A stretch of DNA of 64,000 bases, from assembly GCA_016719135.1 (NCBI GenBank), contig JADKAV010000001.1, positions 181,966 through 245,965 of the forward strand. Reading direction: 5' to 3'. This document shows positions 24,914 through 28,895 of this stretch, one piece after another. Origin of the DNA: Micrococcales bacterium (lineage in GTDB: Bacteria; Actinomycetota; Actinomycetes; S36-B12; UBA10799). The notes beneath the pieces are model-generated. The model was not told the DNA's origin, ran no database searches, and saw only the letters and a list, made by a program, of their open reading frames with translations. The stretch's first letter is position 1. Each line of letters begins with the position of its first letter. The translations under genes were made by a program, and so were the position numbers.

Positions 24914-25195
24914 TTATTCCGAACGCCATTCAAACTGCGTGGGTGGCAGTTCCGAGGACCATTCCAACGCCTCGAAAGGACAGATGTCGACGCACAGCCC
25001 GCACATCATGCAGGTGCCGTAGTCGATGCTGAACCGGTCCAGAGCCAAACTCGAACGGCGGCGGCCCGACGACTCGTCCACCTCGAGGTGGGCGTCGAGT
25101 TCCAGGCACCACACCGGGCAAGCCCGAATGCACAACATGCAACTGGTGCAGTTCTCAGCGATCAGTTCCAATGACGCCCGCGGGTTCATCGCCAT
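24914..25195 (-). CDS. NuoI/HycF-like 2x[4Fe-4S] ferredoxin (93 aa)
   Basis: ORF 24914..25195. Two CxxCxxCxxxCP motifs are present (CTSCMLCIRACP and CMMCGLCVDICP) with NuoI-like spacing. It overlaps the upstream gene by 10 nt. Confidence 0.75.
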   Translation of the reverse strand: MAMNPRASLELIAENCTSCMLCIRACPVWCLELDAHLEVDESSGRRRSSLALDRFSIDYGTCMMCGLCVDICPFEALEWSSELPPTQFEWRSE

Positions 25196-25581
25196 GGTGT
25201 TCCCGGTGGGTCCTGGCGACGGCGCGGTTTGGCCGGGTCCACCTCACCGGGCCATTGACTCAGCCGGGCGGGCAGCGGCTGGGCTTTGCGCAAAGGCGCG
25301 GGCGAGTCCGGCGGCAGCAACAGCGGCGCCGCGTTCAACCCTTCGAAAGTCACGCCGAACATCTCGGCGGTCTCCCGCTCGTGCCATTGCGCGCTGGGGA
25401 ACATGTCGACCACCGATTCCACCGGTGCGGGCGATCGCACGAGCCGGAAAGATCCCGGATCCTCAGACCTGACCAGACAGGCCGTCACGACGACCTCGTC
25501 ATCCTCTTCGGTGGCACTGAGCCAGTCCAGCACGTCGAACCCGTCGTCGCGCAACGCCTGCAACTCGCTGCGCCAGCTCAT
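25186..25581 (-). CDS. NuoC-like (complex I 30-kDa subunit family) small protein (131 aa)
   Basis: 3' part of ORF 25186..25953, from ATG 25581: MSWRSELQALRDDGFDVLDWL...QWHERETAEMFGVTFEG...PLRK. The WHERExxxxFG and PLRK signatures of NuoC are present. The ATG overlaps the upstream stop (ATGA). Confidence 0.7.
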   Translation of the reverse strand: MSWRSELQALRDDGFDVLDWLSATEEDDEVVVTACLVRSEDPGSFRLVRSPAPVESVVDMFPSAQWHERETAEMFGVTFEGLNAAPLLLPPDSPAPLRKAQPLPARLSQWPGEVDPAKPRRRQDPPGTPWR

Positions 25582-26015
25582 GACAAAGCCGCCAGGACCG
25601 CATCTCGCAACGCTTCCGGGCGCGGTGGGCACCCGGGCACCACCACGTCGGCCTCGATCCCCCGCACCACCGCGTAGGAGTCCCAGTACGGACCGCCGGT
25701 GATCGTGCACACGCCGTACGCAACGACCATGCGGGGTTCCGGGGTCAGGGCGATCTGCTCGGCCACCAGCTGGGCCGCGGCGCGGGTCACGGTGCCTGCC
25801 ACGACCACGACGTTCGGGCCGTCGATCTCGGCGAGTTCGGCAGACGCCGATCGCGCCGCGAGACTGTCGGCCTCCACCCCACAGCAGGCGAGGTCGACGT
25901 AGCGGACATCCACACGGATCACTGTAGGCCGCGGCAGGTACCGTGGACCACATGCACAGCGCTTCGTCCAGAGGTCGATGTCTTTGACATCACACACCGG
26001 TGCGGTGGCCCGCAC
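25578..26015 (-). CDS. NuoB / group-4 hydrogenase small-subunit-like [4Fe-4S] protein (145 aa)
   Basis: 3' part of ORF 25578..26570. The part upstream of GTG 26015 is antisense to korA and looks spurious. All four N2-type ligands are present: VDLACCGVE, YGVCTITGGPY and VPGCPPRPE. There is also an extra N-terminal C-x11-C-x-C. Confidence 0.7.
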   Translation of the reverse strand: MRATAPVCDVKDIDLWTKRCACGPRYLPRPTVIRVDVRYVDLACCGVEADSLAARSASAELAEIDGPNVVVVAGTVTRAAAQLVAEQIALTPEPRMVVAYGVCTITGGPYWDSYAVVRGIEADVVVPGCPPRPEALRDAVLAALS

Positions 26016-26064
26016 CAGGTAATTGGCCGGATACTTGGACGCAGGAGCGACAGCGAGGAAGCAC

Positions 26065-27921
26065 GTGGTTACCACCCCATCGAAGAAGACCGTCCGCCTG
26101 AGCCGGGTCATTGTGCGTTTTGCCGGTGACTCCGGGGACGGCATGCAGTTGACCGGCGACCGGTTCACCTGGGAGTCGGCGGCGAACGGTAACGATCTAT
26201 CGACCCTGCCGGACTTCCCCGCGGAGATCCGAGCGCCACAGGGGACTCTGCCCGGCGTGAGCGCATTCCAGCTGCACTTCGCCGACCACGACATCGTCAC
26301 TCCCGGCGATGCCCCCGACGTGCTCGTGGCCATGAATCCGGCTGCCTTGATGGCCAGTCTTCCGCTGCTCAAGCCGGGGGCGGAGATCATCGTCAACACC
26401 GACGAGTTCAGCAAACGCAACCTGACGAAGATCGGACTGACCACCAGTCCGCTGGACGACGACACGCTGGCCACCTTCTCGGTGCGCCCCGTGCCGTTGC
26501 CCTCCATGACAGTCGAGGCGCTGGCCGGCTTCGGGCTCGGCAAGAAGGACGCGGAACGGGCCAAGAACATGTTCGCCCTCGGGCTGTTGAGTTGGCTGTA
26601 TCACCGCGAACTCGACGCCACCGAGCACTTCCTCAACGACAAGTTCGCCCGCAAACCGGAGATCCTGAAGGCCAACGTCGCGGCCTTGCACGCCGGCTAC
26701 AACTACGGGGACACGACCGAGGATTTCGTGGTGCGCTACGAAGTGGCCCCGGCTCCGGTCCCGGCCGGCACCTACCGCAACATCAGCGGAAACCTCGCGC
26801 TGTCCTACGGTTTGATCGCGGCGGCCCGGCGCAGCGCCCTGCCTCTGTTCCTCGGGTCGTACCCGATCACCCCGGCCAGCGACATCCTGCACGAACTGAG
26901 CCGGCACAAGCACTTCAACGTGACCACGTTCCAGGCCGAGGACGAGATCGCCGGGATCGGGGCGGCCCTCGGCGCGGCATACGGAGGGGCACTGGGCGTG
27001 ACCACCACCTCCGGGCCGGGCCTCGCGCTGAAGAGCGAGACCATCGGATTGGCGGTGGCCCTGGAACTGCCGCTGCTGGTCGTGGACGTGCAACGCGGAG
27101 GGCCGTCGACCGGCTTGCCCACCAAGACCGAGCAGGCCGATCTGCTGCAGGCGCTGTACGGGCGCAATGGCGAATCACCGGTGGCCGTGGTTGCTCCCAA
27201 GTCACCGTCCGACTGCTTCGATGCTGCCATCGAGGCGGTCCGGATCGCGGTCACCTACCGGACGCCCGTACTGCTGCTGTCCGACGGATACCTGGCCAAC
27301 GGACAGGAGCCCTGGGCCATCCCGGACCTGGCCGACCTGCCCACCCTGAACCCCGGTTTCGCCACCGAACCCAATGGACCGGACGGTGAGTTCCTTCCGT
27401 TCCTGCGCGATCCCGAGACCCTTGCCCGGCCGTGGGCGATCCCCGGCACCCCCGGGTTGGCACACCGGGTCGGCGGTATCGAGAAGGCCGACCGAACGGG
27501 CAACATCTCCTACGACCCCGACAACCACGACACGATGGTCCGGCTGCGGCAGGCCAAGATCGACGGCATCGATGTGCCTGATCTCGAGGTGGACGACCCG
27601 GACGGCGACGCCGACCTGCTGGTCATCGGCTGGGGTTCCACTTACGGCCCCATCACCGCTGGGGTTCGACGCGTGCGCAAGGAGGGCAAGAAGGTCGCCC
27701 AGGCCCACCTGCGACACCTCAGTCCGATGCCGAAGAACACCGGTGAGGTCCTGAGGTCGTACCGCAAGGTTCTGGTGCCTGAGATGAACCTGGGCCAGCT
27801 CGCGCTGCTGCTGCGCGGACGGTTCCTGGTGGACGCGGTCGGCTTCAACCAGGTTCGCGGACTGCCGTTCACCGCGCCGCAGATGCAAGACGTGATCAAC
27901 GAGATGCTGGAGGGGGTGTGA
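26065..27921 (+). CDS. korA: 2-oxoglutarate:ferredoxin oxidoreductase subunit alpha (KorA, 618 aa)
   Basis: Lies in ORF 26023..27921. Likely start is GTG 26065 after GAGGAAG. Conserved N-terminus: VIVRFAGDSGDGMQLTGDRFT...DFPAEIRAPQGTLPGVSAFQ. Confidence 0.9.
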   Translation: MVTTPSKKTVRLSRVIVRFAGDSGDGMQLTGDRFTWESAANGNDLSTLPDFPAEIRAPQGTLPGVSAFQLHFADHDIVTPGDAPDVLVAMNPAALMASLPLLKPGAEIIVNTDEFSKRNLTKIGLTTSPLDDDTLATFSVRPVPLPSMTVEALAGFGLGKKDAERAKNMFALGLLSWLYHRELDATEHFLNDKFARKPEILKANVAALHAGYNYGDTTEDFVVRYEVAPAPVPAGTYRNISGNLALSYGLIAAARRSALPLFLGSYPITPASDILHELSRHKHFNVTTFQAEDEIAGIGAALGAAYGGALGVTTTSGPGLALKSETIGLAVALELPLLVVDVQRGGPSTGLPTKTEQADLLQALYGRNGESPVAVVAPKSPSDCFDAAIEAVRIAVTYRTPVLLLSDGYLANGQEPWAIPDLADLPTLNPGFATEPNGPDGEFLPFLRDPETLARPWAIPGTPGLAHRVGGIEKADRTGNISYDPDNHDTMVRLRQAKIDGIDVPDLEVDDPDGDADLLVIGWGSTYGPITAGVRRVRKEGKKVAQAHLRHLSPMPKNTGEVLRSYRKVLVPEMNLGQLALLLRGRFLVDAVGFNQVRGLPFTAPQMQDVINEMLEGV

Positions 27922-28895
27922 TGACCGAGATCCCGCTGAAAGCCAAGGATTTCAAGTCCGACCAGGAGGTTCGGTGGTGCCCGGGTTGTGGCGACTACGC
28001 GATCCTCGCGGCGGTGCAGTCCTTCCTGCCCGAACTCGGCCGCAAACCCGAGGACATCGTGTTCGTCTCCGGGATCGGCTGCTCGTCGCGATTCCCGTAC
28101 TACCTGTCGACCTACGGCCTGCACTCGATCCACGGCCGTGCACCGGCGATCGCCACCGGCCTGTCGGTCAGTCGGCCGGACCTGGACGTGTGGGTGGTGA
28201 CAGGTGACGGCGACGCCCTGTCGATCGGCGGCAACCACCTGATCCACGCACTGCGCCGCAACGTGAACATCACCATCCTGTTGTTCAACAACCGCATCTA
28301 CGGGCTGACCAAAGGGCAGTACTCCCCCACGTCCGAACCCGGCAAGGTCACCAAGTCGACGCCGGTGGGTTCGGTCGACCGGCCCTTCAACCCCATCTCC
28401 CTGGCGCTAGGGGCCGACGCGACGTTCGTGGCGCGGACTATCGACTCCGACCGCGCCCACCTGATTGAGGTGCTGCGGGCGGCCGCCGAGCACCGCGGCA
28501 CGTCGCTGGTGGAGATCTACCAGAACTGCAACATCTTCAACGACGGAGCCTTCGACCTGCTGAAGAACCCGACCACCCGTGACGAGGCGCTGATCCCGCT
28601 ACGCGCCGGCGAGCCGATCGTCTTCGGGGATCGTCGCGTGGTGCGCGACGCCACCGGGCACCTGCAGGTCTCCGAGCACGGCGAACCGGTCGTGCACGAT
28701 CCGACCGACCTCGAGTTGGCCTTCGCGTTGTCCCGGCTCTCCGGGGTGGCGCTCGACCATACGCCGATCGGCATCTTCCGCAGCGTTGAACAGCCGACCT
28801 ACGACGACGAGGTCCGCGCCCAAACCGACGACCGCGCCAACGAGGACGACCTACAGGCTCTGCTGACCGGACCCGATCCCTGGACCGTGAACTGA
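27918..28895 (+). CDS. korB: 2-oxoglutarate:ferredoxin oxidoreductase subunit beta (KorB, 325 aa)
   Basis: ORF 27918..28895: ...VRWCPGCGDYAILAAVQSFLPELG...SGIGCSSRFPYY...GRAPAIATG. This is the TPP-binding beta subunit. It overlaps the korA stop. Confidence 0.9.
   Translation: MMTEIPLKAKDFKSDQEVRWCPGCGDYAILAAVQSFLPELGRKPEDIVFVSGIGCSSRFPYYLSTYGLHSIHGRAPAIATGLSVSRPDLDVWVVTGDGDALSIGGNHLIHALRRNVNITILLFNNRIYGLTKGQYSPTSEPGKVTKSTPVGSVDRPFNPISLALGADATFVARTIDSDRAHLIEVLRAAAEHRGTSLVEIYQNCNIFNDGAFDLLKNPTTRDEALIPLRAGEPIVFGDRRVVRDATGHLQVSEHGEPVVHDPTDLELAFALSRLSGVALDHTPIGIFRSVEQPTYDDEVRAQTDDRANEDDLQALLTGPDPWTVN

Follow-up and report, generated by a model that had tools for sequence, protein, structure and literature searches.

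A trio of NuoB-, NuoC- and NuoI-like genes beside korAB is a reduced derivative of the actinobacterial nuo2 cluster

In photosynthetic NDH-1, a ferredoxin:plastoquinone oxidoreductase, ferredoxin feeds the clusters of NdhI directly. Much closer to the genes considered here is the actinobacterial nuo2 cluster, represented by Streptomyces SCO4599-4608, the function of which has been called “unclear”, with cooperation with the canonical operon suggested (PMC9239103). In Streptomyces, nuoD2 is encoded apart from the nuo2 operon (PMC8388888; PMC3765725). Another system with a missing piece is the 2-oxoacid:acceptor oxidoreductase KorAB (KOR), whose physiological acceptor in mycobacteria and other actinobacteria is unidentified (PMC2773412); a first-pass annotation of the present DNA, made from the letters alone, had called it poorly defined. 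Here we analyze a stretch of 64,000 nucleotides (the window) from the Micrococcales bacterium assembly GCA_016719135.1 (contig JADKAV010000001.1, positions 181,966 to 245,965, forward strand), in which three small minus-strand genes, triB, triC and triI (the trio), lie back to back with korAB. The trio descends from nuo2, and we propose, with a probability of roughly 0.5 for the statement as a whole, that its products form a nuo2-derived soluble electron wire serving KorAB or a ferredoxin.

All three trio products belong to complex I families (coordinates in Table 1). triB matches the Pfam family Oxidored_q6 (E 9.6e-15; 54.9 bits against a cutoff of 27), triC matches Complex1_30kDa (E 3.6e-18; 66.7 bits against a cutoff of 22.5) and triI matches the Fer4 and 4Fe-4S dicluster families. 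Their best NCBIfam matches are NuoB (74 bits), NuoC (TIGR01961, 37 bits) and NuoI (TIGR01971, E 3.7e-16, 58.8 bits), each under its curated cutoff (116, 122 and 113, respectively). The open reading frames (ORFs) of triB and triC share an ATGA stop/start overlap at 25578-25581, and triC and triI overlap by 10 nt (ATGGCGATGA) at 25186-25195. The four cysteines of the N2-type site of triB (CC, GVC and PGC, the tandem CC included) are kept in all trio loci. triI has two CxxCxxCxxxCP motifs, all eight cysteines of which are present and kept in every trio lineage, bringing to 12 (4 + 8) the cluster cysteines retained throughout. triC carries a PLRK motif and a W-H/Y-E-R-E motif that is invariant among aligned homologues. 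Across 30 homologues its alignment has 24 invariant columns, several of them in the C-terminal tail (W110, P111, G112, P116 and G127), where PPGTPW is nearly invariant as well. An AlphaFold2 (AF2) model of triC has a mean predicted local distance difference test score (pLDDT) of 87.8, and its Foldseek matches are solely complex I 30-kDa subunits, NdhJ, MbhK and MbsK, with a query-normalized template modeling score (TMq) of up to 0.71, against Thermus Nqo5. The C-terminal 30 residues, strongly conserved, are extended and of low confidence in the model. The first-pass annotation had described three coupled minus-strand genes of NuoB, NuoC and NuoI type, with four triB ligands, PLRK and eight ferredoxin cysteines, and this description stands; the ligands are also conserved in orthologues, which are under purifying selection.

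The locus is not peculiar to one assembly. A public assembly collection contains the exact triC protein in 382 of its indexed blocks, the six loci fetched for it have an identical gene order at 99.3-99.7% identity to the window, and the trio proteins are reproduced exactly in other assemblies. By label, the organism falls among metagenome-assembled genomes (MAGs) assigned to Candidatus Nanopelagicales, several of which come from activated sludge. As first annotated, no NuoD-like or membrane subunit gene adjoins the trio: none was found within ~10 kb on either side in the window and in same-species assemblies, and the only NuoD in the 64-kb window belongs to the canonical nuoA-N operon.

To place the trio, we ran a triC profile against a single genome from each species and annotated the resulting 80 loci by tblastn with the window proteins. 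In 77 of the 80 the triC homologue (~36-47% identity) lies in a cluster of the order A-B-C-H-I-(J,K)-L-M-N, which a detailed reading of two loci confirmed, and none of these 77 nuo2-type loci has NuoD, E, F or G within 10 kb. Their hosts include Streptomyces, Micromonospora, Herbidospora, Actinomadura, Knoellia, Terrabacter, Humibacillus and Aeromicrobium, among others. Two sequence signatures join the trio to these clusters. The motif GGPYWDSY occurs in triB and in the NuoB2 of nuo2 clusters but not in the canonical NuoB of the window, and a C-terminal tail of the form WPG..P....RR..PPG.P..W is common to triC and NuoC2. The trio had at first been taken for an orphan of undescribed architecture in which the missing NuoD was unusual. 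Both points need revision, given that the trio is a reduced derivative of a known cluster and that an absent adjacent NuoD is normal for nuo2, NuoD2 being encoded elsewhere. Published descriptions of nuo2 state that NuoC is lacking (PMC9239103). In one Streptomyces locus (L033), the gene between nuoB2 and nuoH2 (9896-11461) encodes a NuoC domain followed by ~330 Pro/Ala-rich low-complexity residues.

Trio-only loci, with B-C-I and no membrane gene downstream, make up the window clade (L001-L007, L087 and L163-L166), and more distant ones encode somewhat longer proteins (L027, L030, L089/L090, L103, L148, L167, L168 and L169). A metagenome scan with triC returned mostly nuo2 and canonical clusters, together with the new trio loci L087, L089, L090, L103 and L148. 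Neither tblastn nor gene calls revealed the membrane subunits A2, H2 or J2-N2 within +/-10 kb of the trio in the window and 13 other non-redundant trio loci. The surrounding order, nuoN - polyprenyl synthase - ... - EamA - korB - korA, then divergently B-C-I - yajQ - rpmG - hadAB - murB - secE/nusG, is shared by every close trio locus and by several distant ones. In a neighbour-joining (NJ) tree of concatenated B, C and I proteins (329 columns, Kimura distances, 100 bootstraps, rooted on the canonical subunits of the window), all trio-type sequences form one clade with 100% bootstrap support, nested inside a nuo2 clade that also has 100%. Eleven-gene clusters that include D (L142, L143, L146, L147, L149 and L150) are more distant and lie basal to nuo2 and the trio together. 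Trio branches are several-fold longer than nuo2 branches. The trio is thus distinct from the housekeeping complex I, as had been claimed from the presence of a separate canonical operon in the window (Table 1), and it groups with nuo2.

Selection has acted on these genes. Many species, down to ~36-45% triC identity, have intact reading frames and retain the overlaps. Within the window clade the ratio of nonsynonymous to synonymous substitution rates (dN/dS; pairwise Nei-Gojobori) is 0.13-0.30 for the trio versus 0.06-0.13 for korA and korB, values that are approximate because dS is near saturation (0.6-1.5). The triB value for L165 was left out as an artefact, given that the tblastn match ran across an upstream stop. 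Because dN/dS is 0.13-0.30, we regard the trio as streamlined rather than decaying, and it is very probable that it is both derived from nuo2 and functional. A pseudogene remnant was rejected on dN/dS together with ligand conservation. A decayed nuo2 operon, with the trio as its non-functional leftover, would account for the loss of all seven membrane genes, for truncated and fast-evolving proteins and for scores under the NCBIfam cutoffs for NuoB, C and I. However, intact frames with translationally coupled overlaps, the low dN/dS, the conservation of all 12 cluster cysteines, the confident NuoC fold of the triC model and the retention of the trio in apparently streamlined genomes such as L030 make such a leftover highly improbable.

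The proteins have also been shortened in a particular way. triB, triC and triI are each ~35-40 N-terminal residues shorter than NuoB2, NuoC2 and NuoI2, and CC falls at residues 10-11 of the 111-aa triB versus ~45-46 in NuoB2. triI is without the N-terminal helix and the GLAKG...T-x-QYPDV segment that are present in NuoI2 and canonical NuoI. This N-terminal segment is absent from all trio-type I proteins, and in the window clade triI is also without the C-terminal helix of NuoI2. Solved structures of complex I (Thermus) show the N-terminal segments of both NuoB and NuoI resting on NuoH and NuoA. Because these segments are lost, the trio would no longer sit on a membrane arm, and we lean towards a trio that works in the cytoplasm, detached from that arm.

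The same segments bear on another possibility, that triB, triC and triI can replace their canonical counterparts in the housekeeping complex I, alongside canonical NuoD and the membrane arm, giving a hybrid that would be fed by KorAB or ferredoxin rather than by NADH. For Streptomyces, a complex mixing nuo and nuo2 products has been suggested (PMC9239103). In the window the canonical operon is 9.5 kb away from the trio. triC, moreover, keeps the carboxylates of the NuoC ERE..E motif, on which the integrity of E. coli complex I depends. However, triB and triI have lost the N-terminal segments found in NuoB2, NuoI2 and the canonical subunits, where they contact NuoH and NuoA, the long branches point to altered constraints, and identity to the canonical subunits is low. 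On balance we consider such a hybrid improbable.

The remaining part of the proposal concerns the neighbouring korAB. korA scores 651.9 bits against TIGR03710, above the cutoff, and also matches POR and POR_N; korB matches TPP_enzyme_C (E 4e-31) and reaches 258.8 bits against PorB_KorB TIGR02177 (cutoff 261.9). KorAB is a two-subunit enzyme, and no delta subunit gene is present in the locus. Of the 13 non-redundant trio loci with upstream sequence, 12 have korA directly next to the trio in divergent orientation, and korAB lies divergently upstream of the nuo2-type cluster in 52 of the 80 genome loci. The distance from korA to nuo2 varies: the two are directly divergent, with a gap of 270-550 bp, in Intrasporangiaceae and related MAGs, 1.8-3.5 kb apart in most Streptosporangiales and related loci, and ~4-5 kb apart in most Streptomyces loci. 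A limited literature search found no paper on a korAB-nuo2 association or on a membrane-less B-C-I derivative, an absence that is no proof of novelty. Since the korAB pairing persists through gene loss, nuo2 itself is associated with korAB, no delta gene is present and the KOR acceptor is unidentified, KorAB or its ferredoxin would be the most economical electron donor, an assignment that we make tentatively.

The mechanism we propose is as follows. One actinobacterial lineage, with MAGs labelled Candidatus Nanopelagicales, Micrococcales and Mycobacteriales, would have deleted the nuo2 membrane subunits A2, H2 and J2-N2, and kept B2, C2 and I2, N-terminally trimmed and left in their ancestral position back to back with korAB. 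The products would hold three [4Fe-4S] clusters, equivalents of N6a, N6b and N2, forming a soluble cytoplasmic electron wire, with the NuoC-like triC as scaffold and its conserved tail binding a partner. Low-potential electrons from KorAB may enter the wire directly, with triI docked at the site that the delta ferredoxin subunit takes in four-subunit oxidoreductases, or may reach it through a ferredoxin, and the wire would then pass them onward to a further acceptor.

The trio and korAB may also share their control. The two are divergent neighbours with korA most likely starting at 26065, as first annotated, and this GTG start is supported by a conserved Shine-Dalgarno (SD) sequence and by 618-aa gene calls in other assemblies. 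The spacer between them, previously put at ~50 bp, is ~151 bp with the likely triB start at GTG 25913. The longer, 145-aa reading of triB needs a GTG at 26015 and adds an N-terminal C-x11-C-x-C motif. In an alignment of six species of the window clade, the coding signal ends just upstream of VDVRY(V/L)(D/N)LACC. Further upstream there are indels of lengths not divisible by three, L163 has lost a large piece, L165 carries an in-frame stop, and the cysteines of the motif are absent from L087, L163, L165 and L166. Gene callers on other assemblies give triB as 111 or 114 aa. The extension to 26015 is probably untranslated, with GTG 25913 the likely start of a 111-aa protein. An extra N-terminal Fe-S or zinc site on triB was rejected, the motif being neither conserved nor coding.

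Several blocks within the spacer are conserved in the six-species alignment and may be promoter or SD elements. On the minus strand, 7 nt separate TACAGT (25921-25926) from the triB GTG downstream of it, a spacing that would fit a leaderless actinobacterial mRNA start. On the plus strand, GATACT (26030-26035) lies upstream of the korA GTG and GAGGAA (26055-26060) ends four bases before it. A scan of the locus for sigma-70 consensus promoters and terminators detected nothing, and an Rfam search of the locus gave no match. Further conserved blocks in the spacer are CCACGGTACC, GACATCG and GCGGGCCA(C/A)CGCA, which could be operator sites of a shared regulator. Co-regulation of the trio and korAB from the 151-bp spacer would be consistent with this arrangement.

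A number of observations weigh against the proposed electron wire. It is gene order that ties KorAB to the trio, and the adjacency may be inherited rather than selected because the region is strongly syntenic across actinobacteria. In S. coelicolor the AbrC two-component system (SCO4596-98) separates korAB (SCO4594/95) from nuoA2. The survey loci without korAB in range are mainly those of Micromonosporaceae and Aeromicrobium, whose nuo2 clusters have no korAB within the flanks fetched, plus short contigs. In L030 (7159-9392), a lower-GC Nanopelagicales MAG, the trio is intact, its genes do not overlap and all cysteines are kept; EamA is the direct divergent neighbour of triB, and the contig carries no korAB, which makes this MAG a natural test of whether KorAB is required by the trio. 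M. tuberculosis, which has korAB, is not known to have nuo2. Long-branch attraction could have inflated the support for trio monophyly, given the length of the trio branches. Finally, the usual place of an N2-type cluster is the NuoB-NuoD interface, and a wire that lacks NuoD would end with no obvious acceptor. The idea of a relay dedicated to KorAB, put forward in the first-pass annotation, thus keeps its adjacency to korA, in trio and nuo2 loci alike; the dedication itself is drawn from synteny and has L030, Micromonosporaceae and Aeromicrobium against it.

In the main alternative the trio joins an unlinked NuoD2 in a soluble four-subunit Q-module (B-C-D-I), KorAB need not be involved and the adjacency is inherited order. 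nuo2 systems normally carry NuoD2 elsewhere, as in Streptomyces, L101, L170 and L171: the orphan gene follows nuoN2 in L101 (14885-16039, minus strand) and lies beside DUF3180-folK-folB-folP-folE-ftsH in L170 (10001-11182) and L171 (10001-11179). These orphan NuoD2 proteins (PF00346) are ~385-393 aa long, many are >80% identical between genera, and divergent full-length sequences at 49-58% identity exist. All NuoD2 proteins aligned carry RHDWL at the place where Thermus Nqo4 has RMDYL, with the quinone-binding Tyr87. NuoC mainly binds NuoD, the triC tail is conserved yet modelled as extended, as for a partner-bound peptide, and L030 has kept the trio without an adjacent korAB. However, no NuoD2 is present in the window or within +/-10 kb of any trio locus. 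Among the best 240 NuoD2 matches none carries a Nanopelagicales label or shows contig counts as high as those of the abundant trio species, and NuoD2 protein, representative and cluster searches gave no match attributable to a trio-bearing genome; as negatives these are weak. The adjacency to korA has, moreover, survived in nearly all trio loci despite heavy local gene loss. We therefore regard a B-C-D-I module that need not involve KorAB as rather unlikely.

Returning to the wire serving KorAB or a ferredoxin, a bolder form can be stated, in which the trio, alone or with an unlinked NuoD2, would be a free-standing cytoplasmic Q-module docked on KorAB as its dedicated electron acceptor, and the complete Nuo2 of the larger actinomycetes would be a proton-pumping 2-oxoglutarate (or ferredoxin):menaquinone oxidoreductase. 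We hold this form to be doubtful. If it were true, the long-missing redox partner of actinobacterial KOR would be identified, and the trio would be, to our knowledge, the first case of complex I peripheral-arm subunits used without a membrane arm. The divergent gene order across several actinobacterial orders brings the KOR acceptor, open since the 2009 description in M. tuberculosis, and the role of nuo2 into one testable hypothesis. Together, the trio and korAB offer a natural five-protein minimal system for transfer from KOR to complex-I-type Fe-S clusters, and with the trio the role of an N2-type cluster that has no quinone site can be explored. Should the link to korAB be only historical, the trio would still be a modular reduction of a complex I paralogue, mainly of specialist interest.

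The features discussed are collected in Table 1. Elsewhere in the window, the canonical nuoC and nuoD (47600-49600, minus strand) can be read through only with four or more changes of frame, and rpoB (11819-15305, minus strand) falls into two overlapping ORFs, although a second assembly of this species encodes it as 1147 aa. Alignments of the window with L001, L003 and L004 open 9-20 gaps per 20 kb, at 99.3-99.7% identity. The frame breaks in nuoC, nuoD and rpoB are most likely long-read assembly indel errors, not pseudogenes. A 105-bp tandem repeat (34203-34484; 2.7 copies, 88% matches) lies between the acyl-CoA dehydrogenase and polyprenyl synthase genes and is also found in L001, L003 and L004. 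Local G+C content reaches 0.73 in the nuoF/nuoG region (44001-46000) versus 0.63-0.69 elsewhere in the window.

Table 1. Features of the trio-korAB locus and the canonical operon, in positions of the window
Feature	Position	Strand	Description	ORF as called mechanically, or basis
triI	24914..25195	(-)	minimal NuoI2-like ferredoxin, predicted 2x[4Fe-4S], 93 aa	24914-25195
triC	25186..25581	(-)	short NuoC2-like subunit, 131 aa, without cofactor, conserved extended C-terminal tail	25186-25581
triB	25578..25913	(-)	truncated NuoB2-like subunit, predicted [4Fe-4S] (N2-type), 111 aa from the probable start	25578-26015
putative divergent control region	25914..26064		151 bp	conserved blocks, six-species alignment
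korA	26065..27921	(+)	alpha subunit, two-subunit 2-oxoacid:acceptor oxidoreductase	ORF opens at 26023
korB	27918..28895	(+)	beta subunit (thiamine pyrophosphate (TPP) and [4Fe-4S]); start overlaps korA stop	
canonical nuoA-N operon	~35482..50595	(-)		ORFs and three-frame translation

Among known systems, Group 4 [NiFe] hydrogenases and Ehr complexes (Hyc, Ech, Mbh; M. tuberculosis Rv0082-87) resemble the trio in their small NuoB-, NuoC- and NuoI-like subunits. The trio differs in being without an adjacent large subunit (HycE/EchE/NuoD-like) or membrane subunits, and the tree places it inside the complex-I-type nuo2. Against solved proteins, triB scores 53-63 bits with complex I and NDH-1 subunits, 46.7 with MbhJ and 38.7 with HycG. 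A remnant of Hyc/Ech/Ehr hydrogenase type is ruled out by this similarity ranking and the phylogeny. Such a decayed remnant had been foreseen in case homologous trios always sat inside complete clusters of that type; homologues do sit in larger clusters, so the broad expectation is borne out, but the clusters are of complex I type, not Hyc/Ech, and the trio is streamlined.

Like the PorD/KorD delta subunit, triI is a small 2x[4Fe-4S] ferredoxin-like protein encoded beside catalytic subunits. It differs in deriving from NuoI2 and in being divergently transcribed, on the opposite strand to korAB. Its match to the delta family TIGR02179 (E 3.1e-9, 36.8 bits) is under the cutoff of 60.05 and under its own NuoI match. 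Because triI falls under the family cutoff and is NuoI-derived, it is not a PorD/KorD delta subunit.

Photosynthetic NDH-1 and complexes of the archaeal Fpo type, 11-subunit forms of complex I that have no N-module, share with the trio the absence of NuoEFG. The closest solved relatives of triB and triI (multi-domain polyferredoxins set aside for the latter) are NdhK and NdhI of photosynthetic NDH-1, each by a small margin. NDH-1 and Fpo, however, pump protons across the membrane and have both NdhH/NuoD and a complete membrane arm, neither of which is encoded near the trio.

The closest comparison is with nuo2. Its B, C and I subunits are the closest homologues of the trio and group with it in the tree, it occupies the same position, flanked by the canonical nuo operon on one side and the rpmG/secE-nusG block on the other and adjoining korAB, and it is likewise without NuoE, F and G and without an adjacent NuoD. 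The trio differs in being without A2, H2, J2, K2, L2, M2 and N2 and in evolving faster. Hence, the trio is a reduced derivative of the known nuo2 by descent and position, not by composition.

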